Assembly (NCBI RefSeq): GCF_003018255.1
Contig: NZ_CP027440.1
DNA: 64,000 bases
Reading direction: 5' to 3' (one strand)
Source: Escherichia coli
Lineage (GTDB): Bacteria > Pseudomonadota > Gammaproteobacteria > Enterobacterales > Enterobacteriaceae
Shown: positions 1,876 through 61,722 of the stretch, one piece after another
Layout: the number at the start of each line of letters is the position of its first letter
Position numbering within the stretch: the stretch's first letter is position 1
Translations under genes and position numbers: made by a program
Notes under the pieces: generated by a model
What the model was told of the DNA's origin: nothing
What the model saw: the letters and a program-made list of their open reading frames with translations, nothing else
The model's database searches: none

Positions 1876-3225
1876 ATGTCTACGCCATCAGCGCGTACCG
1901 GCGGTTCACTCGACGCCTGGTTTAAAATTTCACAACGTGGAAGCACTGTCCGTCAGGAAGTGGTTGCCGGGTTAACAACATTTCTGGCGATGGTCTACTC
2001 GGTTATCGTCGTTCCAGGCATGTTGGGTAAAGCAGGCTTCCCGCCTGCGGCAGTTTTCGTTGCGACCTGTCTGGTTGCCGGACTCGGTTCTATCGTGATG
2101 GGTCTGTGGGCTAATCTGCCGTTGGCGATTGGTTGCGCCATCTCCCTGACGGCGTTTACCGCATTCAGTCTGGTGCTGGGGCAACATATTAGCGTACCTG
2201 TCGCGCTGGGTGCCGTGTTCCTGATGGGTGTGCTGTTTACGGTCATTTCTGCCACGGGTATCCGTAGCTGGATTTTGCGCAACTTGCCGCACGGTGTGGC
2301 GCACGGCACGGGGATTGGTATCGGTCTGTTCCTGCTGCTGATTGCTGCTAATGGTGTCGGTCTGGTGATTAAAAACCCACTTGATGGTCTGCCCGTCGCG
2401 CTGGGGGATTTCACGACCTTTCCGGTGATGATGTCGTTGGTGGGGCTGGCAGTGATTATCGGCCTGGAAAAACTGAAAGTCCCTGGTGGCATTCTGCTGA
2501 CCATTATCGGTATCTCAATTGTCGGTTTGATCTTCGATCCTAACGTCCATTTCTCCGGCGTTTTCGCCATGCCTTCATTGAGCGATGAAAACGGCAATTC
2601 ACTAATTGGCAGCCTGGACATTATGGGCGCGCTGAATCCTGTAGTCCTGCCAAGCGTTCTGGCGCTGGTGATGACGGCAGTATTTGATGCCACCGGAACT
2701 ATCCGTGCCGTCGCCGGCCAGGCGAACCTGCTGGATAAAGATGGGCAGATCATCGACGGCGGGAAAGCACTGACCACTGACTCCATGAGCAGCGTTTTCT
2801 CTGGCCTGGTGGGTGCAGCTCCGGCAGCGGTATACATCGAGTCTGCGGCGGGTACGGCGGCGGGCGGTAAAACCGGTTTGACGGCTATCACCGTTGGCGT
2901 GCTGTTCCTGCTGATTCTGTTCCTCTCTCCGCTCTCTTACCTCGTTCCGGGGTATGCAACGGCTCCGGCGCTGATGTACGTTGGCCTGCTGATGCTGAGT
3001 AACGTGGCGAAAATCGACTTTGCTGATTTTGTTGATGCGATGGCGGGTCTGGTTACGGCGGTATTCATCGTGCTGACCTGTAACATCGTAACAGGCATCA
3101 TGATCGGCTTCGCGACTCTGGTGATTGGTCGTCTGGTTTCCGGCGAATGGCGCAAGTTGAACATCGGTACGGTCGTTATCGCTGTGGCGCTGGTGACCTT
3201 CTATGCGGGTGGCTGGGCTATCTAA
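1876..3225 (+). CDS. ghxP: Guanine/hypoxanthine permease (NCS2/AzgA family)
   Basis: 449-aa polytopic membrane ORF; position after soxR matches yjcD/ghxP. Confidence 0.9.
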
Positions 3226-3375
3226 TCTTTCATATGATTCTGAAAACGGGTGGCAATGGCTGCCCGTTTTTATTTTCTCCGCACATTGTGTGAGCTTTTG
3301 CGATATTCTGAAAAAATGAGAATTCAGGCATAACGCCTTTCTCAGATCATAAAAAACATCGCAAACAGGGAACGC

Positions 3376-5025
3376 ATGGAAATCTTCTTCACCATACTGA
3401 TAATGACCCTCGTGGTCTCGCTGTCCGGGGTGGTCACTCGTGTCATGCCCTTTCAGATCCCGCTTCCGCTTATGCAAATCGCCATCGGTGCGCTACTGGC
3501 GTGGCCGACGTTTGGTTTGCATGTGGAGTTTGATCCTGAACTCTTTTTAGTCTTGTTTATCCCGCCGTTGCTGTTCGCTGATGGCTGGAAAACGCCGACC
3601 CGTGAATTTCTCGAACATGGTCGAGAGATTTTCGGCCTCGCGCTGGCGCTGGTGGTGGTCACCGTGGTCGGCATTGGCTTTCTTATTTACTGGGTGGTGC
3701 CGGGCATTCCGCTGATCCCCGCCTTTGCGCTGGCGGCGGTGCTTTCTCCGACCGATGCTGTGGCGCTCTCGGGGATTGTTGGCGAAGGGCGCATCCCGAA
3801 AAAAATCATGGGCATTTTGCAGGGCGAAGCGTTGATGAATGACGCCTCCGGTCTGGTGTCGTTGAAGTTTGCCGTGGCAGTGGCGATGGGGACGATGATC
3901 TTCACCGTCGGTGGTGCGACGGTCGAATTTATGAAAGTGGCCATTGGCGGTATTCTCGCCGGTTTTGTGGTGAGCTGGCTGTACGGTCGCTCGCTGCGAT
4001 TCCTCAGCCGCTGGGGCGGTGATGAACCCGCGACGCAGATCGTCCTGCTGTTCCTGCTGCCATTCGCTTCTTATCTGATTGCCGAACATATTGGCGTTTC
4101 CGGTATCCTCGCTGCGGTTGCCGCCGGGATGACCATCACCCGTTCCGGTGTGATGCGCCGTGCGCCGCTGGCAATGCGCCTGCGCGCAAACAGTACCTGG
4201 GCGATGCTGGAATTTGTCTTTAACGGCATGGTATTCCTGCTGTTAGGTCTGCAGCTGCCGGGTATTCTGGAGACGTCGCTGATGGCGGCAGAAATCGACC
4301 CTAACGTCGAAATCTGGATGCTGTTTACCGATATCATTCTGATTTATGCGGCGCTGATGCTGGTCCGTTTCGGCTGGCTGTGGACGATGAAAAAGTTCAG
4401 CAACCGCTTCCTGAAGAAGAAGCCGATGGAGTTTGGTTCGTGGACCACACGAGAAATCCTGATCGCGTCTTTCGCCGGGGTGCGTGGGGCGATCACTCTG
4501 GCTGGTGTGCTCTCAATCCCGCTGCTCTTGCCGGATGGTAACGTCTTCCCGGCGCGCTATGAGCTGGTGTTCCTGGCGGCTGGTGTCATTCTCTTCTCGC
4601 TGTTTGTCGGCGTGGTGATGTTGCCTATTCTGCTACAACACATTGAAGTCGCGGACCATTCGCAACAATTGAAAGAGGAACGTATTGCGCGAGCGGCAAC
4701 GGCAGAAGTGGCGATTGTGGCGATCCAGAAAATGGAGGAGCGTCTGGCGGCGGATACCGAAGAGAATATCGATAACCAGCTGCTCACAGAGGTTAGTTCT
4801 CGCGTCATTGGTAACCTGCGTCGTCGCGCCGATGGACGTAACGACGTTGAAAGTTCCGTGCAGGAAGAGAACCTTGAGCGTCGCTTCCGTCTGGCGGCAT
4901 TGCGTTCTGAACGTGCTGAACTGTACCACCTGCGCGCCACGCGGGAGATCAGTAACGAAACGCTGCAAAAATTACTGCACGATCTCGATTTGCTTGAAGC
5001 GTTGCTGATTGAAGAGAACCAATAA
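3376..5025 (+). CDS. yjcE: Putative Na+/H+ exchanger (CPA1 family)
   Basis: 549-aa ORF with N-terminal multi-TM domain and charged C-terminal tail. Confidence 0.85.
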   Translation: MEIFFTILIMTLVVSLSGVVTRVMPFQIPLPLMQIAIGALLAWPTFGLHVEFDPELFLVLFIPPLLFADGWKTPTREFLEHGREIFGLALALVVVTVVGIGFLIYWVVPGIPLIPAFALAAVLSPTDAVALSGIVGEGRIPKKIMGILQGEALMNDASGLVSLKFAVAVAMGTMIFTVGGATVEFMKVAIGGILAGFVVSWLYGRSLRFLSRWGGDEPATQIVLLFLLPFASYLIAEHIGVSGILAAVAAGMTITRSGVMRRAPLAMRLRANSTWAMLEFVFNGMVFLLLGLQLPGILETSLMAAEIDPNVEIWMLFTDIILIYAALMLVRFGWLWTMKKFSNRFLKKKPMEFGSWTTREILIASFAGVRGAITLAGVLSIPLLLPDGNVFPARYELVFLAAGVILFSLFVGVVMLPILLQHIEVADHSQQLKEERIARAATAEVAIVAIQKMEERLAADTEENIDNQLLTEVSSRVIGNLRRRADGRNDVESSVQEENLERRFRLAALRSERAELYHLRATREISNETLQKLLHDLDLLEALLIEENQ

Positions 5026-7449: not shown

Positions 7450-9408
<1,959 letters not shown>

Positions 9409-9659
9409 GCTTTTGTTCTCCTTGTAGGATGTTAATAATATGTGGCATAAGCGTTAAATGTAGGGGTATTGGCAGTTTTGTTTAGTATTTGGGCGACAGA
9501 TCACGCAAAAGTAGAATTGTGCAAATAAACGGCAGGGTAATTTTTGAAGGTCAGCAACAAAAGTTGATTAATTCTTTGAGGAACATGCAGTTATGCATGC
9601 TGTTGAAAAAGAGGAAGATACTGACTAACTCTAAAGTGGTATTTTACATGCACTTACAA

Positions 9660-9673
9660 TTGATTAAAGACAA
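9660..9673. promoter_or_regulatory. Candidate FNR half-palindrome in the nrfA promoter region
   Basis: TTGATTAAAGACAA resembles TTGAT-N4-ATCAA; lies ~140 bp upstream of the nrfA start. Site assignment is inference. Confidence 0.3.
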
Positions 9674-9758
9674 CATTCACAGTGTGGTTATTTGTTACAC
9701 ATAGGGGCGAGCAATGTCATGACAGTGTAGGTGCGGTTACTGTCGTGAAAAACAATAA

Positions 9759-11237
<1,479 letters not shown>

Positions 11238-33914: not shown

Positions 33915-34805
33915 TTATTTCAGCGCGCCTGGTGAGAAGAAATCAACAATTGCGCCGGTTTTTTGCATATTAATATTAGCTTGTTCAATGTTGAGCTGGG
34001 CGACAGAGACAAAAAACGCGTCCAGCAAAGTTAGTTGTAATATTCTTGCCGAGGCATTACGACCTAATAACGGTGTTTCCGGGGCCGGTGAGCAAATAAT
34101 ATAATCGGCCAGCTTCGCTATCGGTGAATGGTAGCTATGCGTTATACAAATAATCTTTGCCCCGTTCTTTTTTGCCAGTTCTACAGCCGCTTTTACATCA
34201 CTGGTTCGCCCGGAATGGGTCACCACCAGCACCACATCTCCTTCCTGTAACAACGAAGCAGACATCATCATGATGTGAGCGTCCGGATAGGCCTGGCAGC
34301 GTACGCCAATGCGCAAAAACTTGTGCTGTACATCAGCACAGATTGCATTTGATCCTCCGGCACCGTACAAATCCCGCTGTCTGGCCTGATAGAAAAAGCG
34401 GGCGGCACGGTGGATCTCATCAACGTTGACGATCGACTGACCTTCCATAATGGTGCGTAAAGTGATGTTAAATACCTTATTCACCACATCCTGCGGCGCT
34501 TCATCAAAAGCCAACTCGGAAGGCAATACTTGTTCTGACTGAGAAAAATAATCTTCCAGCGCACTGCGTAAGTTACGAAAGCCGCTAAACCCCAGCAGCT
34601 TTGATACCTTAACGATCATCGCTTCAGATACCGCCAGAGCTTCTGCGACATCTTTAATTGCGGGTGCACAACTCAGGTTACCGGGTTTGAGTAACCACTC
34701 CACGATGCGGCTTTCGTTTTCTGTCATTCCTTCCTGCTTCATTCGCAGGTAAGGCGCTAACCCGATACCGTTCGGAAGCGCTGAATCAAACTCTGACTGG
34801 CTCAT
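33915..34805 (-). CDS. rpiR: RpiR/AlsR transcriptional repressor (HTH + SIS domain)
   Basis: ~296-aa ORF, divergent from rpiB. Confidence 0.85.
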   Translation of the reverse strand: MSQSEFDSALPNGIGLAPYLRMKQEGMTENESRIVEWLLKPGNLSCAPAIKDVAEALAVSEAMIVKVSKLLGFSGFRNLRSALEDYFSQSEQVLPSELAFDEAPQDVVNKVFNITLRTIMEGQSIVNVDEIHRAARFFYQARQRDLYGAGGSNAICADVQHKFLRIGVRCQAYPDAHIMMMSASLLQEGDVVLVVTHSGRTSDVKAAVELAKKNGAKIICITHSYHSPIAKLADYIICSPAPETPLLGRNASARILQLTLLDAFFVSVAQLNIEQANINMQKTGAIVDFFSPGALK

Positions 34806-35162
34806 CACGTTCTCTTGTCCTTGAATTGAAGACGCCACTATATCACCACAGCAAGAACAGAAAAGATGCTGGCAACTTCACAAAAAAATAAAATTTATAA
34901 AGTTTGTTTTGTTGTGAATAATGGAGAGTGGCTTAAAATTTCATTTCATTTAATCACTTTAAAAACATGATGTTATTGTTTTCCTGGTTTATTAGATGAT
35001 AGATGTTGCTGGATAGTGAGTGTCTTTAACGCTATTGCGCTGCCAGATGTAACTCTGTAAAACAGATCGGGAAGGCGGATTTCATCGATTTTGGGTGTTT
35101 TTAATTCATTTACATCACAAATGTTTTTTGATTGTGAAGTTTTGCGCGGGCGGGGAAGATGA

Positions 35163-35612
35163 ATGAAAAAGATTGCATTTGGCTGTGATCATGTCGGTTT
35201 CATTTTAAAACATGAAATAGTGGCACATTTAGTTGAGCGTGGCGTTGAAGTGATTGATAAAGGAACCTGGTCGTCAGAGCGTACTGATTATCCGCATTAC
35301 GCCAGTCACGTCGCACTGGCCGTTGCTGGCGGAGAGGCTGATGGCGGGATTTTGATTTGTGGCACTGGCGTCGGTATTTCGATAGCGGCGAACAAGTTTG
35401 CCGGAATTCGCGCGGTCGTTTGTAGCGAACCTTATTCCGCGCAACTTTCGCGGCAGCATAACGACACCAACGTGCTGGCTTTTGGTTCACGAGTGGTTGG
35501 CCTCGAACTGGCAAAAATGATTGTCGATGCGTGGCTGGGCGCACAGTACGAAGGCGGTCGTCATCAACAACGCGTGGAGGCGATTACGGCAATAGAGCAG
35601 CGGAGAAATTGA
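35163..35612 (+). CDS. rpiB: Ribose-5-phosphate isomerase B / allose-6-phosphate isomerase
   Basis: 149-aa ORF of the RpiB/LacAB family. Confidence 0.92.
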   Translation: MKKIAFGCDHVGFILKHEIVAHLVERGVEVIDKGTWSSERTDYPHYASHVALAVAGGEADGGILICGTGVGISIAANKFAGIRAVVCSEPYSAQLSRQHNDTNVLAFGSRVVGLELAKMIVDAWLGAQYEGGRHQQRVEAITAIEQRRN

Positions 35613-47427: not shown

Positions 47428-47471
47428 GATGGTGACCTCAGTTAAGAGAAGCCCGTTAAGTGTAGTTCGAA

Positions 47472-47580
<109 letters not shown>

Positions 47581-47586
47581 ATACAA

Positions 47587-47922
47587 TCAGTTCTTTTTCA
47601 CAAACTCAGACTTCAGTTTCATCGGACCAAAACCGTCGATTTTGCAATCGATGTTATGGTCGCCTTCAACCAGGCGGATGTTTTTCACTTTGGTGCCAAT
47701 TTTCAGCATCGAAGAGCTACCTTTCACTTTCAGATCTTTAATGATGGTAACGCTGTCGCCGTCAGCCAGCAGATTGCCGTTAGCATCTTTAACGATCAGC
47801 TCGTCGCTTTCCTGTGCAGGTTCTGCGTCGTTCCATTCGTAGGCACATTCCGGGCAGATGTACATGCCGTTATCTTCGTAGGTGTATTCGGAGTTGCATT
47901 TTGGGCAGTGTGGTAATGACAT
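47587..47922 (-). CDS. yjdM: Zinc-ribbon protein PhnA/YjdM
   Basis: 111 codons from [21 protein letters not shown] zinc ribbon. Confidence 0.85.
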
Positions 47923-48323
47923 GTGGATTTCCTCAAAAGTCAGCAGGGCAAAAGCGCCAAAAAACGGCAGATTGCCGAAAAAGGCCGCAATTATACACAA
48001 AATCCCTGAGTTTGTCGGGGGTACTGCTGATTTTAGACGACGATCGTTTTCATTTGAAAGGAAACGCAAAAAGAAAATAATCTTTTTGCCTCCATTTATT
48101 ATTTAAGATAAGGTTAATGCTCTACTCGTTCTTTTTTTAATTCACATGATGTTTTTATCTTTCTGACGTTTTAAACGTATTGGAAGATGTTATTTGTTCT
48201 AATAAAAAACAACACGCTAAATATAAAATTATTTCCTGCAGTAATTATAAAAGCCGAAAACAGAACTCAAAAACAATCTGGCTAAATAAAAGTAATAAAA
48301 TTTGCTTTAAGGAAGAATATTCT

Positions 48324-50552
48324 ATGTATACACAGACCCTGTATGAGTTAAGTCAGGAGGCTGAACGCCTGTTACAGCTTTCTCGCCAACAGTTGCAGTT
48401 ACTGGAAAAAATACCTCTCTCTGTACCCGGAGACGATACGCCACAACTGGCTTTACCCTGGAGTCAGCCTAATATCGCCGAACGTCACGCGATGCTGAAT
48501 AATGAGTTGCGTAAAATTTCCCGGCTGGAAATGGTGCTGGCGATTGTCGGTACCATGAAAGCAGGGAAATCAACCACCATTAATGCCATTGTTGGTACGG
48601 AGGTTCTGCCTAATCGTAATCGCCCAATGACTGCGCTGCCAACGCTTATTCGCCATACGCCCGGGCAAAAAGAACCGGTACTGCATTTTTCACATGTCGC
48701 GCCAATCGACCATTTAATTCAACAATTACAACAGCGCCTGCGTGATTGCGATATTAAGCATCTGACCGATGTGCTGGAAATAGATAAAGATATGCGTGCG
48801 CTTATGCAGCGGATTGAAAATGGCATCGCTTTCGAAAAATATTATCTGGGTGCTCAACCTATTTTTCATTGTCTGAAAAGTTTGAATGATTTGGTGCGAC
48901 TGGCGAAGGCGCTGGACGTCGATTTTCCTTTTTCTGCTTACGCCGCCATTGAGCATATTCCCGTGATTGAAGTGGAGTTTGTCCATCTGGCGGGGCTGGA
49001 GAGTTATCCCGGTCAGTTGACGTTACTGGATACCCCCGGGCCAAATGAAGCCGGGCAACCGCATCTGCAAAAAATGCTTAACCAGCAGCTGGCACGCGCC
49101 TCGGCGGTACTGGCGGTGCTGGATTATACGCAACTGAAATCGATCTCCGATGAAGAGGTCCGTGAGGCAATTTTGGCGGTGGGGCAATCGGTGCCGTTGT
49201 ATGTGCTGGTCAATAAGTTCGATCAACAGGATCGTAACAGTGACGACGCCGACCAGGTGCGGGCACTGATTTCCGGGACGCTGATGAAAGGTTGTATTAC
49301 GCCACAGCAGATATTTCCGGTGTCGTCGATGTGGGGCTACCTGGCGAATCGGGTGCGCCATGAGTTAGCCAACAACGGTAAGTTACCACCGCCAGAGCAA
49401 CAACGCTGGGTGGAAGATTTTGCCCATGCCGCGCTCGGCAGGCGCTGGCGTCATGCCGATCTGGCGGACCTCGAACATATTCGTCATGCTGCCGATCAGT
49501 TGTGGGAAGATTCGCTGTTCGCCCAGCCAATTCAGGCGTTGCTTCATGCCGCTTACGCTAACGCCTCGTTGTATGCTCTGCGATCTGCCGCGCATAAACT
49601 GTTGAATTACGCGCAGCAGGCGCGGGAATACCTGGATTTTCGTGCGCACGGGTTAAACGTCGCTTGTGAACAATTGCGGCAAAATATCCATCAGATCGAA
49701 GAAAGTTTGCAGCTATTGCAACTCAATCAGGCGCAGGTGAGCGGCGAGATTAAACATGAAATCGAGCTGGCCCTGACCTCCGCCAACCACTTTCTGCGTC
49801 AACAGCAAGATGCGCTGAATGCGCAGTTAGCCGCCTTGTTTCAGGATGATTCAGGGTCATTAAGCGAGATTCGTACCTGCTGTGAGACACTGTTACAGAT
49901 GGCGCAGAACACCATTAGTCGCGACTTTACGCTGCGTTTTGCCGAGCTGGAATCCACCCTTTGCCGGGTGTTAACCGATGTTATTCGCCCCATTGAGCAA
50001 CAAATCAAAATGGAATTGAGCGAGTCAGGGTTTCGTCCTGGGTTTCATTTTCCTGTTTTTCACGGCGTAGTTCCCCACTTCAACACTCGCCAGCTGTTCA
50101 GTGAAGTCATTTCGCGCCAGGACGCAATGGACGAGCAGAGCACGCGTTTAGGCGTTGTGCGTGAGACTTTTTCGCGCTGGTTGAATCAGCCCGACTGGGG
50201 ACGGGGAAATGAGAAATCCCCGATAGAGACGGTTGATTACAGTGCGTTGCAACGAGCATTAAGCGCAGAAGTCGATCTTTATTGCCAACAAATGGCTAAA
50301 GTTCTGGCAGAGCAGGTCGATGAATCTGTTACGGCAGGCATGAATACTTTTTTCGCTGAGTTCGCTTCATGTTTGACGGAATTACAGACGCGTTTACGCG
50401 AAAGTCTGGCTCTGCGTCAACAAAATGAATCGGTGGTCAGGCTGATGCAGCAGCAATTGCAGCAGACTGTGATGACTCATGGCTGGATTTACACCGACGC
50501 TCAGCTGTTACGCGATGATATTCAAACACTTTTCACGGCAGAACGATATTGA
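48324..50552 (+). CDS. crfC: Dynamin-like large GTPase
   Basis: 742 codons from MYTQTLYELS with RBS AAGGAAG upstream; P-loop GTMKAGKST near N-terminus; long helical C-terminal region. Confidence 0.85.
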   Translation: MYTQTLYELSQEAERLLQLSRQQLQLLEKIPLSVPGDDTPQLALPWSQPNIAERHAMLNNELRKISRLEMVLAIVGTMKAGKSTTINAIVGTEVLPNRNRPMTALPTLIRHTPGQKEPVLHFSHVAPIDHLIQQLQQRLRDCDIKHLTDVLEIDKDMRALMQRIENGIAFEKYYLGAQPIFHCLKSLNDLVRLAKALDVDFPFSAYAAIEHIPVIEVEFVHLAGLESYPGQLTLLDTPGPNEAGQPHLQKMLNQQLARASAVLAVLDYTQLKSISDEEVREAILAVGQSVPLYVLVNKFDQQDRNSDDADQVRALISGTLMKGCITPQQIFPVSSMWGYLANRVRHELANNGKLPPPEQQRWVEDFAHAALGRRWRHADLADLEHIRHAADQLWEDSLFAQPIQALLHAAYANASLYALRSAAHKLLNYAQQAREYLDFRAHGLNVACEQLRQNIHQIEESLQLLQLNQAQVSGEIKHEIELALTSANHFLRQQQDALNAQLAALFQDDSGSLSEIRTCCETLLQMAQNTISRDFTLRFAELESTLCRVLTDVIRPIEQQIKMELSESGFRPGFHFPVFHGVVPHFNTRQLFSEVISRQDAMDEQSTRLGVVRETFSRWLNQPDWGRGNEKSPIETVDYSALQRALSAEVDLYCQQMAKVLAEQVDESVTAGMNTFFAEFASCLTELQTRLRESLALRQQNESVVRLMQQQLQQTVMTHGWIYTDAQLLRDDIQTLFTAERY

Positions 50553-51427
50553 CCAAGACGTTACTGGACGGCCCCGGTCGCGTGCTGGAGTCGATTCATC
50601 CCCGCTTTTTAGTGGATCTGGCGCAGGGCGATGATGCCCGCCATCCACAAGCCCATCAGCAGCAGTTTCGTGAACGACTGATGCAGGAACTTCTTGCGCG
50701 TGTGCAGCTTCAGGCATGGACGAACGGCGGGATGTTAAATGCGCCGCTTAGCCTGCGTCTGACATTGGTGGAAAAACTGGCGTCGATGCTGGATCCCGGT
50801 CATCTGGCGCTGACGCAGATCGCGCAACATCTGGCGCTGCTGCAAAAAATGGATCACCGCCAGCACTCTGCTTTCCCTGAGCTCCCCCAGCAAATTGCCG
50901 CCTTGTATGAGTGGTTTTCAGCCCGTTGTCGCTGGAAGGAAAAGGCGTTAACGCAACGAGGCCTACTGGTGCAGGCGGGTGAACAGAGCGAGCAAATTTT
51001 TACCCGCTGGCGTGCTGGGGCGTACAACGCCTGGTCGTTGCCTGGGCGCTGTTTTATCGTTCTGGAGGAGTTGCGTTGGGGGGCATTTGGCGATGCCTTT
51101 CGTCTGGGAAGCCCGCAAGCGGTGGCGTTGTTGCTGGGTGATTTGCGCGTGAAAGCGACACAACATCTGGCAGAGAGTATCAATGCGGCCCCGACCACGC
51201 GTCACTATTACCATCAGTGGTTTGCCTCTTCGACCATTCCGACGGGCGGGGATCATGCTGATTTTTTAAGTTGGCTGGGAAAGTGGTCCACGGCAGATAA
51301 ACAACCCGTTTGCTGGTCAGTGACCCAACGCTGGCGAACTGTCGCACTGGGGATGCCACGACTCTGTTCAGCGCAGCGTCTGGCGGGGGCAATGGTCGAG
51401 GAAATCTTCTCTGTAAATTTGGTGTAA
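50549..51427 (+). CDS. yjcZ: Protein of unknown function, coupled to crfC
   Basis: 292-aa ORF whose TTG start overlaps the crfC TGA (TTGA); no recognisable motif. Confidence 0.75.
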   Translation: MTKTLLDGPGRVLESIHPRFLVDLAQGDDARHPQAHQQQFRERLMQELLARVQLQAWTNGGMLNAPLSLRLTLVEKLASMLDPGHLALTQIAQHLALLQKMDHRQHSAFPELPQQIAALYEWFSARCRWKEKALTQRGLLVQAGEQSEQIFTRWRAGAYNAWSLPGRCFIVLEELRWGAFGDAFRLGSPQAVALLLGDLRVKATQHLAESINAAPTTRHYYHQWFASSTIPTGGDHADFLSWLGKWSTADKQPVCWSVTQRWRTVALGMPRLCSAQRLAGAMVEEIFSVNLV

Positions 51428-51690
51428 ATAATCAGTTACATCAATGAGTCCTAAACGAAATCCATGTGTGAAGTTGATCACAAATTTAAACGCTGGTAGG
51501 GTAAAAAGGTCATTAACTGCCCAATTCAGGCGTCAACTGGTTTGATTGTACATTCCTTAACCGGAGAGTGTAAGCAAACCCGCTACGCTTGTTACAGAGA
51601 TTGCATCCTGCAATTCCCGCTCCCCTTTTGCGGCCGTCGCGCTGATTTTTCTGGCGTTTGCGGAAATGGGCCAACTCTGCGAGGAAAGCT

Positions 51691-53193
51691 ATGCTGAAAA
51701 GGAAAAAAGTAAAACCAATTACCCTTCGTGATGTCACCATTATTGATGACGGTAAACTGCGTAAAGCCATTACCGCAGCATCACTGGGTAATGCAATGGA
51801 ATGGTTTGATTTTGGTGTTTATGGTTTTGTTGCTTACGCATTAGGTAAAGTTTTTTTCCCGGGGGCTGACCCCAGCGTGCAGATGGTTGCTGCACTTGCC
51901 ACTTTCTCCGTTCCCTTTCTGATTCGACCGCTTGGTGGACTCTTCTTTGGTATGTTGGGCGATAAATATGGTCGCCAGAAGATCCTCGCTATCACTATTG
52001 TGATTATGTCGATCAGTACGTTCTGTATTGGCTTAATACCGTCCTACGACACGATTGGTATTTGGGCACCGATTCTGCTGTTGATCTGTAAGATGGCACA
52101 AGGTTTCTCGGTCGGCGGTGAATATACCGGGGCGTCGATATTTGTTGCGGAATACTCCCCTGACCGTAAACGTGGCTTTATGGGCAGCTGGCTGGACTTC
52201 GGTTCTATTGCCGGGTTTGTGCTGGGTGCGGGCGTGGTGGTGTTAATTTCGACCATTGTCGGCGAAGCGAACTTCCTCGACTGGGGCTGGCGTATTCCGT
52301 TCTTTATTGCTCTGCCGTTAGGGATTATCGGGCTTTACCTGCGCCATGCGCTGGAAGAGACCCCGGCGTTCCAGCAGCATGTTGATAAACTGGAGCAGGG
52401 CGACCGCGAAGGTTTGCAGGATGGCCCGAAAGTCTCGTTTAAAGAGATTGCCACCAAACACTGGCGCAGCCTGTTGACATGTATTGGTCTGGTAATTGCC
52501 ACCAACGTGACTTACTACATGTTGCTGACCTATATGCCGAGTTATTTGTCGCATAACCTGCATTATTCCGAAGACCACGGGGTGCTGATTATTATCGCCA
52601 TTATGATCGGTATGCTGTTTGTCCAGCCGGTGATGGGCTTGCTGAGTGACCGTTTTGGCCGTCGTCCGTTTGTGCTACTTGGTAGTGTTGCACTGTTTGT
52701 GTTGGCGATCCCGGCGTTTATTCTGATTAACAGTAACGTCATCGGCCTGATTTTTGCCGGGTTACTGATGCTGGCGGTGATCCTTAACTGCTTTACGGGC
52801 GTTATGGCTTCTACCTTGCCAGCGATGTTTCCGACGCATATCCGTTACAGCGCGCTGGCGGCGGCATTTAATATTTCGGTGCTGGTTGCCGGTCTGACGC
52901 CAACACTGGCGGCCTGGCTGGTCGAAAGCTCGCAGAATCTGATGATGCCTGCCTATTACCTGATGGTAGTGGCGGTGGTTGGTTTAATCACCGGCGTAAC
53001 CATGAAAGAGACGGCAAATCGTCCGTTGAAAGGTGCGACACCGGCGGCGTCAGATATACAGGAAGCGAAGGAAATTCTCGTCGAGCATTACGATAATATC
53101 GAGCAGAAAATCGATGATATTGACCACGAGATTGCCGATTTGCAGGCGAAACGTACTCGCCTGGTGCAGCAACATCCGCGAATTGATGAATAA
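51691..53193 (+). CDS. proP: Proline/glycine-betaine:proton symporter (MFS, osmosensing)
   Basis: 500 codons from MLKRKKVKPITL; 12-TM MFS core and C-terminal coiled-coil. Confidence 0.92.
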   Translation: MLKRKKVKPITLRDVTIIDDGKLRKAITAASLGNAMEWFDFGVYGFVAYALGKVFFPGADPSVQMVAALATFSVPFLIRPLGGLFFGMLGDKYGRQKILAITIVIMSISTFCIGLIPSYDTIGIWAPILLLICKMAQGFSVGGEYTGASIFVAEYSPDRKRGFMGSWLDFGSIAGFVLGAGVVVLISTIVGEANFLDWGWRIPFFIALPLGIIGLYLRHALEETPAFQQHVDKLEQGDREGLQDGPKVSFKEIATKHWRSLLTCIGLVIATNVTYYMLLTYMPSYLSHNLHYSEDHGVLIIIAIMIGMLFVQPVMGLLSDRFGRRPFVLLGSVALFVLAIPAFILINSNVIGLIFAGLLMLAVILNCFTGVMASTLPAMFPTHIRYSALAAAFNISVLVAGLTPTLAAWLVESSQNLMMPAYYLMVVAVVGLITGVTMKETANRPLKGATPAASDIQEAKEILVEHYDNIEQKIDDIDHEIADLQAKRTRLVQQHPRIDE

Positions 53194-58356: not shown

Positions 58357-59118
58357 TCAGGCGACAGTGCGTTCTCTGTGCTGACTAACATAATGCAGCG
58401 GCGTCATACCGTAGAAGTCTTTAAAGACAGAAATAAAGTACGACGTACTGTTGTAGCCGCAGGACTGTGATACCTGAGAGATATTTTTACCGTCCATCAT
58501 TAATTCATTTACGGCATAGCGCATGCGGCAGGTGGTGATTATTTGGCTATAACTGGTGTTTTCGCTTTTCAGCTTTTTCTTTAACAGACTTGGGCTAAGA
58601 CATAAACAACTGGCTACCATACTAAGATTCCAGTCTTTGTGGATATCGCTTTCAATAATTTGATAAACGCTGTCACTTACACAATTACGTAACATATACA
58701 TCATTAGTGAAAGGAATTTTTTACTGTCGAGAAAACGGGATAGCACAGTGAATAATAATGCACGTGTTCGTTCCTTTTCTGACTCAGTTTCAGCGGGCAT
58801 CATGCTATGTTGCGCGGCAACGCGAAAGACGTCTGGCGTCAGGCATGGAAGGGTGAGGATGGGCGTAGCGCTACGTTGCCATACTGGTATTTGCGAGAGA
58901 TCTTTATTCAGAAACCGGAGGTAATCTTTGATGATGTCGTGACTAATATGAGCAACCAAAGTGTTATTAAGAGAGGAGACGTCGATAATATTATTTTCAC
59001 AATTTAATAACGCCATATGGTTAGCTTTAAGGCTAATAGGTTCTTTCCCATTCACCCTTATCCAGACATCTTTTTCAGTCAATAAAACAATACAAGGTTG
59101 GTCGCTGCAAATCCTCAT
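58357..59118 (-). CDS. adiY: AraC-family regulator AdiY
   Basis: 253-aa ORF with C-terminal AraC-type HTH; AT-rich coding and flanks. Confidence 0.88.
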   Translation of the reverse strand: MRICSDQPCIVLLTEKDVWIRVNGKEPISLKANHMALLNCENNIIDVSSLNNTLVAHISHDIIKDYLRFLNKDLSQIPVWQRSATPILTLPCLTPDVFRVAAQHSMMPAETESEKERTRALLFTVLSRFLDSKKFLSLMMYMLRNCVSDSVYQIIESDIHKDWNLSMVASCLCLSPSLLKKKLKSENTSYSQIITTCRMRYAVNELMMDGKNISQVSQSCGYNSTSYFISVFKDFYGMTPLHYVSQHRERTVA

Positions 59119-59312
59119 ACATGTACTCCTGAGTGCGAATAAAAGACCAGTTCTCGCTAAAGCGAAGCGATACCGGGAAATGGTTATATAATTGTATGAT
59201 GAATATAAACATGCATAAAAATAACGAGTTTTACTAATATTACAAATTTTTATAGTAATTTCTCATGTACATATTTTTTTACAGGCTAAAAAAAGGATAA
59301 ATAACAGGCAAA

Positions 59313-59340
59313 AAAAAAGCGCGGGGTGGGACCGCGCAAA
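59313..59340 (-). terminator. Rho-independent terminator downstream of adiA
   Basis: Minus-strand GCGCGGTCCCACCCCGCGC followed by TTTTTTTTT. Confidence 0.7.
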
Positions 59341-59454
59341 AAGTATGACATTTTTTGTTTGCAGCAATTTTTATGAAAACGTTGCCATACTTAAAAGGCC
59401 TCAAGCCAGGCGGCGTAATGTTATTTAACAATTACGCCTTCAGCGGAATAGTGG

Positions 59455-61722
59455 TTACGCTTTCACACACATAACGTGGTAAATACCGTCAATAATTTCT
59501 GTCCCTTCTGTTTCGTGTTCAAATCCAGGGAAATGATGGTCCCAGGATTGCAGCGAGCGTAAATAACTTACTTGCGGACTGTTTTTATCGCCGAAGTTTT
59601 CACCAGACAGCAGCATCGGGATTCCTGGCGGATACGGGATAACTGAGTTTGCCGCGATACGTCCTGGCAGATTTTCAATGGATACCAGTTCGACATTGTT
59701 GTCGACAATCGCGTTGTACGCTTCACGCGGGGTGATTTCCGCCACCGGCAGGCCGGAATAGGCTTCGTTCAACCGTGCGCCAGGGTTGTTTTCTTTCAGC
59801 CAGGCAAACATGGTGTCACCCAGATCGTGAATCCCCATGTTCGCGTAAGTGTCAGGATATTGTTCAACAAGTTCCGGCATCACCTGCGCCAGCGGTGTGT
59901 TGGCGTCATAGTGGCGTTTGAAGGAGCAAAGGGTGTTAACCAGAGTCCCCCATTTCCCACGGGTTACGCCCATAGAGAACAGGAACATAATTTGGAAGTC
60001 AGTGGTGCGGGTAGGCACAATGCCGTGGCGACCAAGCCAGGCAGTGACCAGCGCCGCCGGAACACCGGTTTCTTCCAGTTCACCATCTTCACCCATTCCC
60101 GGAGCAAGGATGCTGACTTTAATCGGGTCGAGCATACTCCAGTTATCCGGAATATCTTTGAAGCCGTGCCAGCTTTCGCCCGGATGCATTACCCAGCAGT
60201 CCTGAACGGTGGTCAGCAGTTTGGTTGGTGCGTCAGCAAAGTCATAGGTTTTGCCGGTTTGTGGGTCGGTGACGACTTCTTTGTTCCACGGTTTGAAGAA
60301 CCAGCTACCGTCAGCGGTGAACTCTTTATACAGCCGCGCCATCGCCTGACGAAAATCAACCGCTTCGTCGATCACTTCCTGCGTCAGTGACAGGCCGCTG
60401 TTGCCGTCCATCATCGACACCGCCACGTCGTTGGATGCGCAGATGGCATACAGCGGGGAGGTGGTGGCATGCATCATGTAGGCCTGGTTGAAGCGGGAGA
60501 AGTTAATCGCCCCACGACCTTCACGTACATGAATATAAGAGGCCTGTGACAGTGCATTCAGCAGTTTGTGGGTGGAGTGGGTGGCGAAAACGGTAGGACC
60601 GTTGTGATCGCCAGGTTCGCCGCGCATGGCATAGTGATCGGCATAGATCGGGTTGAAACGTGCATAGCCGTACCAGGCTTCGTCAAAGTGCAGACGATCG
60701 GAGGTTTTTTCCAGCAGATCCTGCGCTTCTTTAGCGTTATAACACACGCCGTCATAAGTACAGTTGGTCACCACGCAGTAAGACGGTTTTTGCCCGGCTT
60801 TGTCTTTAGTCAGCGGGCTTTCACTGATTTTCTTCTGCAAGGTTTCAGGTTGCATTTCCTGCGGATAGATTGGCCCGATAATGCCGTAGCGGTTGCGGCT
60901 TGGCACCATGTAGACCGGTTTCGCGCCTGTCAGCATCAAGCCTTGTTCGATGGATTTATGGCAGTTACGGTCAACGACCACGACATCGTTATCGGTCATG
61001 CAAGCCTGCATGATAGTGCGGTTAGAGCCGGAAGTACCGACGACTACCGACCAGGAGCGATCGGCACCAAATACGCGTGCGGCATATTTTTCGCTTTCGC
61101 CAAATGCGCCAGTATGGTCAAGCAAAGAACCGAGGGAAGTGCGTTCGATGCCCATGTCGGTGCGGAACAGATTTTCACCATAGTAGTCATGGTAGAAACG
61201 TCCGGCGGGTGTTTTGGTAAAACCAACGCCACCCTGGTGGCCTGGCGCTGCCTAGGAATATTCATGGATGTCGCTATATTTCATCAGCGCGCTGAACAGT
61301 GGCGGCAACAGTTGCTGGCGGTAGCGGGTCATCGCGGCAACGGCGCGTCCGGCGATAAAGTCGGCGGTATCTTCCAGAATCCAGGCGAATTCATCGACAA
61401 GCTCCAGCAGATCCCGGTCCATTGCGGCGAGGGCTTTTTCCCGATCGCCCAACAGGAAGACCGGCACGTTTTGTTGGCGCTCATGAAGCTTACCGATCAA
61501 TTGTCTGACGTTTTGATGTTCGTCCGGATGTTCCATTTGATAGCTGAACATCAGGCAGTCAATGGCTTCGTTTGAAGAGAGAATGGCAAAACCATCATCA
61601 AAGGAGGTGGATTTAATCACGGTAACATTTTGCTGGCTTAAAGCATCTGCCAGACGCTCAACGGCGTTACCGACCCAGGTGTCTTGATGGAGAAACTCGC
61701 TTTCAACAATTAATACTTTCAT
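59455..61722 (-). pseudogene. adiA: Biodegradative arginine decarboxylase interrupted by an in-frame amber codon (TAG at 61252..61254)
   Basis: Track ORFs of 157 aa and 566 aa are in the same frame, separated by one TAG; translation reads ..KYSDIHEYS-stop-AAPGHQGGVGFTK.., where intact AdiA has Trp (TGG) as I recall it. Everything else is in frame for the 755-codon gene. Confidence 0.8.

Follow-up and report, generated by a model that had tools for sequence, protein, structure and literature searches.

The 64-kb window of Escherichia coli DNA analysed here (contig NZ_CP027440.1) carries on its plus strand two overlapping genes, crfC and yjcZ, that very probably constitute the rdcA(crfC/yjdA)-rdcB(yjcZ) operon, a cytoplasmic GTPase switch activating the main diguanylate cyclase of this species, DgcE. 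The crfC open reading frame (ORF) of 742 aa starts with an ATG at 48324 and ends with its stop at 50552; the 292-aa yjcZ ORF starts with a TTG at 50549 and ends at 51427. The two share the TTGA at 50549-50552, in which the yjcZ start overlaps the crfC stop. A RefSeq genome that is 100% identical has both genes at the same coordinates, annotated as crfC and rdcB, the latter with the product name 'diguanylate cyclase regulator RdcB family protein'. In K-12 MG1655, RefSeq names the corresponding genes b4109 and b4110 rdcA and rdcB ('regulator of diguanylate cyclase'). Orthology, the gene order yjdN-yjdM-crfC-rdcB-proP, the TTGA junction and a promoter for the sigma factor FliA inside crfC are all as in K-12 RdcA/RdcB (YjdA/YjcZ), and the crfC region was found in 5419 of 5426 complete E. 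coli genomes. A preliminary description of the window, made from the sequence, had called this pair its least understood module; instead, it proves to be a characterised activator of DgcE (PMC6510439, PMC13031359) that already bears its name in the K-12 annotation.

CrfC (RdcA, YjdA) was assigned from profile matches, a predicted structure and structural comparison as a soluble dynamin-like GTPase (48324..50552, plus strand). It scores 1583 bits against the NCBIfam CrfC equivalog NF007368, for which the cut-off is 1146, and 66.7 bits (3e-18, cut-off 27) against Pfam Dynamin_N. On the plus strand lie the codons for all four GTPase motifs: G1, GTMKAGKST, at aa 76-84 (48549-48575) and including K82; G2, T103 (48630-48632); G3, DTPG, at aa 236-239 (49029-49040); and G4, NKFD, at aa 297-300 (49212-49223). 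The length of the protein and its P-loop had been given correctly in the preliminary description, as had its dynamin-like nature and its long helical C-terminal region. G1-G4 are near-invariant in 37 CrfC homologues, whether these belong to the rdcAB type or to the cassette type that we describe below, and K82 and T103, both present in the window protein, are invariant in the homologue alignment (A5). Compared with K-12 RdcA (b4109), the window protein is 97.7% identical at the amino acid level, and its 17 substitutions leave the G motifs, Q41, K82 and T103 untouched.

An AlphaFold2 model of CrfC, built with 57 homologues, has a mean predicted local distance difference test score (pLDDT) of 79.7. 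In this model a G domain of approximately residues 69-350 is followed by long helices at 414-443, 448-507, 513-567, 639-698 and 702-741, with residues ~582-635 modelled at low confidence. The helices 448-507 and 513-567 would form a long hairpin joined by a 5-residue loop (508-512), and its tip (aa 506-515, 49839..49868, plus strand) is the sole length-variable segment of this family of dynamin-like proteins (DLPs). Foldseek matches of the model in the PDB include IniA, Nostoc BDLP, SynDLP, the mitofusins MFN1/2, Campylobacter DLP1/2 and LeoA, all at a probability of 1.00 with E values of 1e-11 to 1e-7 and with most of the chain aligned (~700-850 columns). BDLP (2j68/2j69), IniA (6j72), SynDLP (7zw6), Campylobacter DLP1/2 (5owv) and the mitofusins share the architecture of CrfC, in which a G domain carrying G1-G4 leads into long stalks of helical hairpins, although sequence identity between these solved proteins and CrfC is only 12-15%. 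Because the model matches solved DLPs along most of the chain, the C-terminal half of CrfC, considered in 2019 to be unlike any known family, appears to be a dynamin-type stalk. By its G motifs and its predicted helical stalk, then, CrfC is a member of the dynamin superfamily. GTP hydrolysis and nucleotide-dependent self-assembly have been reported for CrfC/RdcA in the literature as cited in PMC6510439 and PMC6374313.

The second gene, yjcZ (rdcB; 50549..51427, plus strand), encodes a 292-aa partner of RdcA. It had been thought to lack any recognisable motif; in fact, it matches Pfam PF13990, a family for which the NCBI name is RdcB, at 8e-142 (472 bits). The window protein is 94.9% identical to K-12 RdcB (b4110) in amino acid sequence, with 15 substitutions that include C184F, L200R and E201V. 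Its N-terminus is conserved from M1 across homologues, which supports the TTG start. Structure prediction and remote-homology comparison, which had been proposed as a way into this protein, thus gave a family and an all-helical AlphaFold2 model (pLDDT 71), and found no informative fold relative. We infer that RdcB is a family-specific helical adaptor and not an enzyme. Two segments conserved in YjcZ, EELRWGxFG and the C-terminal PRLCSA, are candidate interfaces with its partners; in the model of YjcZ by itself, pLDDT is low for the C-terminal one. Three E. coli proteins of 438-442 aa (P0018, P0020 and P0022) contain Dynamin_N and YjcZ in one chain; they are 97% identical to YjcZ over 67-72% of their length and look like the products of an internal deletion fusing crfC to yjcZ.

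Upstream of crfC lies a 401-bp region (47923..48323) that is bounded on its other side by the ATG, at 47922, of the minus-strand gene yjdM (phnA). With a GC content of 0.324, compared to 0.531 across the window, it is the most AT-rich 401-bp stretch present and falls in the lowest 0.2% of all 401-bp windows. It had been read as an AT-rich untranslated leader of ~400 bp. The AT-richness stands, but the stretch is the intergenic region between two divergent genes and holds the promoters of both. The best sigma-70-like hexamer pair upstream of crfC in a consensus scan, a candidate promoter matching at 10/12 positions, is TTGAAA-16-AATAAT (48054..48081, plus strand). The region is 96.5% identical to its K-12 counterpart. 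In the neighbouring yjdN-yjdM spacer (window 47428-47586), there are 159 bp here and 657 bp in K-12 (L078 1743-2399), the K-12 spacer being ~500 bp longer. Elsewhere in the window, positions 34779-35292 and 58858-59590 also fall below 36% GC in 401-bp windows.

The guess that H-NS binds this region is borne out by published work. H-NS binding at the crfC promoter region is attributed to Oshima 2006 and Shimada 2011 as cited in PMC6374313, and crfC mRNA rises upon deletion of hns (PMC6374313). The operon was also flagged in two H-NS chromatin immunoprecipitation (ChIP) datasets, and overproduction of SlyA, an H-NS antagonist, induced crfC-yjcZ 2.6-fold (PMC5797941). The H-NS high-affinity motif, TCGATAAATT, has no match with two or fewer mismatches in 47923-48323; the case for H-NS targeting of the region rests on its AT-richness together with the published ChIP.

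A second regulatory element is found within crfC itself. At 50297..50324 on the plus strand, TAAAGTTC-N11-GTCGATGA exactly matches the published ChIP-seq motif for FliA (sigma-28), and it is the best sigma-28 match (13/16) within 47851-51700. By FliA ChIP-seq, yjcZ is transcribed from a sigma-28 promoter located within yjdA (PMC4183435), promoter-fusion activity has been reported for it (10.1101/188474), and a SELEX (systematic evolution of ligands by exponential enrichment) peak for RpoF inside yjdA supports the same promoter. A sigma-28 promoter had once been predicted in the intergenic region instead; we found no match of at least 11/16 in 47923-48323, and Fitzgerald 2014 (PMC4183435) also calls that prediction incorrect. 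Since yjcZ has its own FliA promoter inside crfC, coupling to crfC is not the only route to its expression. Thus, the translational coupling that had been proposed for the pair holds as far as the TTGA overlap is concerned, which has the same junction in K-12, and fails as the sole route to YjcZ. Among relatives, a recognisable intragenic promoter is confined to Escherichia, Kosakonia, Phytobacter, Leclercia and Silvania, with a partial one in Buttiauxella. In RNA-seq of a fliA deletion, yjdA fell from 111 to 11 and yjcZ from 52 to 1 (PMC4183435 Table 2, K-12 coordinate 4327146). The sole FliA site lies 230 bp from the 3' end of yjdA, and a dependence of bulk crfC mRNA on FliA is not accounted for by that site.

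The function of the operon is known from published work. Deletion of rdcA and/or rdcB phenocopies deletion of dgcE with respect to the level of cyclic di-GMP (c-di-GMP), CsgD, curli and macrocolony matrix, and these effects are non-additive (Pfiffer et al. 2019, PMC6510439). In two-hybrid assays, RdcA binds itself, RdcB and the membrane-embedded MASE1 domain of DgcE (PMC6510439). Both genes originally came to notice because they suppress the motility defect of pdeH (Girgis 2007, as cited in PMC6510439). In 2026, an independent genome-wide FRET-To-Sort transposon screen also found dgcE, rdcA and rdcB among the mutants with low c-di-GMP (PMC13031359). In the same screen ynjH, a gene of the FliA regulon that lies outside the window, was strongly associated with the RdcA/RdcB system (PMC13031359).

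GTP hydrolysis by RdcA is required for function (PMC6510439). The variant K82A, a change in the Walker A/G1 lysine that probes GTP binding, still complements, and T103D, which binds GTP and is dead for hydrolysis, neither complements nor binds DgcE (PMC6510439). Because K82A works while T103D is dead and does not bind DgcE, GTP-bound RdcA is taken as the off state, and the proposed signal is the drop in GTP at entry into stationary phase (PMC6510439). In the published model, which we accept for the window locus, RdcA and RdcB would be synthesised together, aided by the 4-nt gene overlap; their complex, in its GTP-free state, would dock on the MASE1 domain of DgcE and promote dimerisation of the cyclase. 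As published, H-NS on the AT-rich region keeps expression of rdcAB low, an effect that SlyA opposes, the operon is under the control of the flagellar cascade, and FliA, acting inside crfC, adds further yjcZ transcript.

Several observations weigh against this account of the operon as a DgcE switch. RdcB shows no binding to DgcE in the two-hybrid assay (PMC6510439), PDB sequence searches returned neither a structure nor a reconstitution of an RdcA-RdcB-DgcE complex, and the mechanism rests mainly on two-hybrid results and genetics from one laboratory. The dgcE gene lies outside the 64-kb window, and the interaction with its MASE1 domain is known from the published two-hybrid only (PMC6510439). 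YjcZ residue 184 (51098-51100) is Phe here and Cys in K-12, with C184 at least 90% conserved in the alignment. Furthermore, the yjcZ TTG start has no obvious Shine-Dalgarno sequence, and a transcript from the FliA promoter cannot couple yjcZ to translation of full-length crfC. Finally, a published function of CrfC in clamp binding and nucleoid partition competes as its primary role. As to the FliA transcript, an in-frame ATG (CrfC M673, 50340-50342) lies ~9 nt 3' of its expected start; M673 is not conserved in the family consensus. Speculatively, translation of the last 70 crfC codons from M673 could restore termination-reinitiation coupling to the yjcZ TTG.

In the work of the Katayama laboratory, from which the name CrfC comes, the protein binds the beta-clamp via 41-QLALP and forms foci at the nucleoid poles, and its loss yields anucleate cells (PMC6374313). 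On this view, CrfC would be primarily a chromosome partition protein: its oligomers would bind clamps left on nascent DNA through this motif, hold sister forks together and sit at the nucleoid poles, with yjcZ being incidental. Anucleate cells were seen in both crfC-deletion and Q41A mutants, as reported in PMC6374313 with reference to Ozaki 2013, and the window retains the clamp-binding motif, as defined there, in intact form (QLALPW, 48444..48461, plus strand). Nevertheless, among the DLPs sampled, Q41 was seen in the E. coli sequence only, no other Escherichia DLP of the rdcAB type being in the alignment, whereas conservation of the GTPase, of its YjcZ partner and of the gene overlap extends to the sampled homologues in general. 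An N-terminal xLxLx[FW] insertion is specific to the rdcAB type; at the site of the clamp motif its other members, among them those of Kosakonia and Cedecea, read xLPLHF without the Gln, and DLPs of the cassette type have no motif there. In addition, it has been pointed out that there is no growth defect, that clamp binding is independent of GTP and that the experiments relied on plasmid expression (PMC6510439), and partition accounts for neither the requirement for yjcZ nor the flagellar-regulon control. We therefore regard partition as unlikely to be the primary role. To judge from the alignment, clamp binding is probably a later, Escherichia-specific addition and most likely a lineage-specific moonlighting function. 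A recent origin of this kind would bear on the dispute over whether the protein is best understood as CrfC or as RdcA.

The preliminary description had also speculated that the pair serves in phage defence, a question that we address here through its relatives. A YjcZ profile search of 1.84 billion representative proteins gave 263 YjcZ-family clusters, many of them distant, and a genome scan with one genome per species gave 69 loci, which phmmer labelling split cleanly into two types. Type I, the cassette, consists of a DLP of ~810 aa, a YjcZ of ~300 aa and a patatin of ~358 aa. It was seen at ~33 scanned loci, in variable positions, in Pseudomonas, Chromatiales, Burkholderiales, Oceanospirillales, Pantoea, Erwinia, Budvicia and Escherichia albertii. 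Type II, to which the window operon belongs, consists of a CrfC-like DLP and YjcZ with no patatin. It was seen at ~36 scanned loci, in Enterobacteriaceae only, and always adjoins yjdM, usually with proP downstream. Since the scan patterns (alignment A3) miss E. coli-like YjcZ, the list of taxa with the rdcAB type is a lower bound. The DLPs of the cassette are ~31-43% identical to that of the window and the YjcZ proteins ~25-37%, and the same stop/start overlap joins their genes. Unlike the window operon, cassettes have an overlapping patatin gene, frequently a WYL/WCX regulator, sometimes JukA, a long hairpin tip and variable, mobile contexts.

The cassette itself appears in RefSeq only as 'dynamin family protein / RdcB family protein / patatin-like phospholipase', and it is not represented in PADLOC-DB v2. 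A search of the open-access literature for an operon or defence system combining a dynamin and a patatin found nothing relevant; a genome paper on an O118 Shiga toxin-producing E. coli (STEC) lists the genes in an island without analysis. At four metagenomic loci (L002-L005), genes for a Dynamin_N protein (807 aa), YjcZ (304 aa) and a patatin (349 aa) overlap in the same orientation, with HicAB and a WYL gene as neighbours. Locus L006 has no dynamin gene and encodes a 532-aa JukA-YjcZ fusion (PADLOC JukA, 8e-74) followed by patatin. A JukA gene is the next one after patatin in L019 (1e-31) and likewise in L047 (2e-58); in L033, phmmer found a weaker JukA-like ORF at that position. The type I patatins retain the GGGxxG, GxSxG (GASIG) and DGG motifs. 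Among 142 ORFs flanking type I cassettes, WYL/WCX regulators are the commonest family (8-9 ORFs); others are type I restriction-modification genes, SNF2/ZacB-like helicases, integrases, transposases and PIN or HicAB toxins.

Within E. coli, the cassette occurs as a second, separate copy of the module. The E. albertii cassette matches 2606 of the 5426 complete genomes at no less than 90% identity, in up to 5 places per genome. Examples of such copies are found in E. coli O121 RM8352 (L076 12001-16366, I3S_RS16200-16210), E. albertii (L028 4581-8946) and plasmid pAW1.7_2 (L077 6620-10991). That of O121 RM8352 lies in an island with ter genes, insertion sequence (IS) elements, a YeeP-like GTPase, an antirestriction gene and YeeU/CbtA, adjoining tRNA-Ile. 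The gene that follows this cassette was considered as a JukA pseudogene, and this was rejected: its translation, which has an internal stop, is unlike JukA. Homologues of the cassette also occur on plasmids, of which 44 were found in E. coli, Klebsiella and Enterobacter; one homologue lies between IS5 and IS30 on an IncFIB plasmid. In a proteobacterial metagenome-assembled genome (L022), a type I cassette is flanked on both sides by genes for GGDEF diguanylate cyclases (2644-3861 and 9267-10406), which may be due to chance but is noteworthy in view of the connection with DgcE in E. coli.

These type I contexts are suggestive of defence, and the cassette, which is common in E. coli, Klebsiella, Enterobacter and Pseudomonas, is a candidate defence or abortive-infection system. 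As a working analogy for the cassette, some patatins are activated by a GTPase or cofactor, as with Legionella VipD and Rab5 or CapV and cGAMP in the CBASS system, the patatin being inactive until its partner binds. Apart from the patatin fold, no sequence evidence of homology links VipD and CapV to the cassette, and the operon of the window, which lacks patatin, falls outside the analogy. Among known defence systems, two others are relevant. Eleos (LeoA/LeoBC) is also composed of dynamin-superfamily GTPases; it pairs two or three DLPs, whereas the partner of CrfC is YjcZ and its locus is outside any defence island. The Juk system (JukA/YaaW), a defence against jumbo phages, is linked to the family by the JukA-YjcZ fusion of L006 and by the JukA genes that follow patatin in L019, L033 and L047. 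JukA is absent from the window, and this connection concerns cassette-type relatives alone. The Juk preprint describes fusions of JukA with patatin, with a GTPase and with an unnamed coiled-coil domain, and does not name YjcZ.

Could the two genes of the window themselves form an anti-phage system? Their homologues form cassettes that lie on plasmids and islands near WYL, JukA, restriction-modification and toxin-antitoxin genes, and CrfC has weak PADLOC matches to Eleos LeoBC (8e-7, 26.6 bits) and LeoA (2e-5, 21.9 bits). Those matches, however, span part of the G domain only, and YjcZ has no PADLOC match, so that neither protein has a significant full-length match to a PADLOC defence profile. 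Nor is the window locus an accessory one whose position varies amid defence or mobile genes. It belongs to the core, fixed in the position yjdM-crfC-yjcZ-proP in nearly all of the E. coli genomes counted above and across Enterobacteriaceae. It has no effector gene or identifiable patatin or WYL remnant, its regulators include FliA and H-NS, and c-di-GMP is the output that has been demonstrated for it. YjcZ-family homologues were not found in phage genomes, and the open-access literature that we searched contains no report of phage protection by rdcAB. A defence role at this locus is thus unsupported and, in our estimation, highly improbable. The idea may apply to the wider gene family, that is, to the ancestry of the module and to the function of its three-gene paralogue in E. 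coli.

Given the likeness of CrfC along its whole length to IniA, BDLP, SynDLP, Campylobacter DLP1/2 and the mitofusins, one might also expect a classical bacterial dynamin that uses YjcZ as a cofactor and remodels membranes, be it by fusion, by fission or in repair. BDLP carries a paddle at the hairpin-tip position. At that position the CrfC model has only the 5-residue loop, and the hydropathy of 19-residue stretches in the tip segment does not exceed 0.28, so that no membrane-binding paddle, pleckstrin homology or transmembrane element was recognised at the stalk tip in the sequence or the model; together with published descriptions of CrfC as soluble and without a membrane-binding motif (PMC6510439, PMC6374313), and with no membrane phenotype reported, this makes membrane remodelling, in our estimation, highly improbable. 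In contrast to the bacterial DLPs and mitofusins, CrfC has a helical partner that is not a GTPase, and its known target is a signalling enzyme and not a membrane.

The activation of DgcE by this operon was already known, and our finding as first stated rediscovers a named and characterised system. The comparative result matters more, and the evolutionary link to the cassette is possibly new. On rough neighbour-joining trees from trimmed MAFFT alignments, type II forms a single clade. The DLP tree places this clade inside type I, with a patatin-bearing locus of Budvicia as its sister. The DLP and YjcZ genes overlap by 4 nt, mostly as ATGA, in 51 of the 66 homologous loci, and the YjcZ and patatin genes by 4 or 8 nt in 27 of 35; the stop/start overlap is probably an ancestral device for producing both proteins together. 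The segment aligned to residues 480-520 of the E. coli DLP, which corresponds to the hairpin tip in the CrfC model, is 89-113 aa long in the type I proteins, against 72-76 aa in the other type II proteins and 40 aa in that of E. coli. The extended tip of type I contains, in this order, YFKEGK, a Lys/Arg-rich stretch, a short hydrophobic or aromatic patch (GAFFSPFF, GFLGGLIGAM or GFFGVAFASILG) and DFDPxxP; the 40-aa segment of the window DLP has no extended basic and hydrophobic tip of this kind. In one type II subclade, made up of Buttiauxella, Cedecea and related Enterobacter isolates, the operon is preceded at a distance of 72-105 bp by a gene homologous to that of the type I WYL regulator. 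No such gene is present in E. coli, and downstream of yjcZ in the window there is no patatin ORF or tblastn remnant, proP following directly. Candidate patatin or WYL remnants flanking the E. coli operon were rejected as chance-level tblastn matches.

Taken together, these comparisons suggest that the rdcAB operon is an effector-less descendant of the mobile dynamin-YjcZ-patatin cassette. More tentatively, it could be the domesticated descendant of a widespread, mobile, four-part module for membrane-targeting conflict or anti-phage action, composed of a WYL/WCX regulator, a DLP with a membrane-binding tip, a YjcZ adaptor and a patatin effector, with JukA alongside in some loci and a JukA-YjcZ fusion replacing the GTPase in L006; we consider this possible, though somewhat doubtful. 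In such a history the module would have settled between yjdM and proP in an ancestor of the Enterobacteriaceae, would have lost the patatin, and later would have lost the WYL gene and shortened the tip. The ancestral YjcZ would have been an adaptor between a sensor, either the DLP or JukA, and a latent phospholipase, the patatin, and the ancestral DLP would have bound membrane through its tip. After the loss of patatin and tip, the complex would have kept a membrane-proximal client, the MASE1 domain. If true, this would give YjcZ, which has no known fold relative, a testable job as the link between an effector and its sensor, a GTPase or JukA, and it would account for a 'dynamin' that regulates a membrane-anchored cyclase.

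Three further features were noted in type II loci. The WYL/WCX genes upstream of crfC-yjcZ lie at 3622-4551 in L038, 3619-4548 in L075 and ~3788-4504 in L040-L044, the place taken in E. coli by the AT-rich intergenic region. In Leclercia adecarboxylata NCTC13032 (L070 4138-7378) and Enterobacter sp. EA-1 (L074 4288-7446), crfC and yjcZ are split into short ORFs and are apparently pseudogenised. Finally, in many rdcAB loci outside Escherichia, a convergent gene for a KdgT-family permease (332 aa, Pfam 2e-115), absent in E. coli, lies between yjcZ and proP, as in L053 (8313-9311), with equivalents in L045, L046, L049 and L066.

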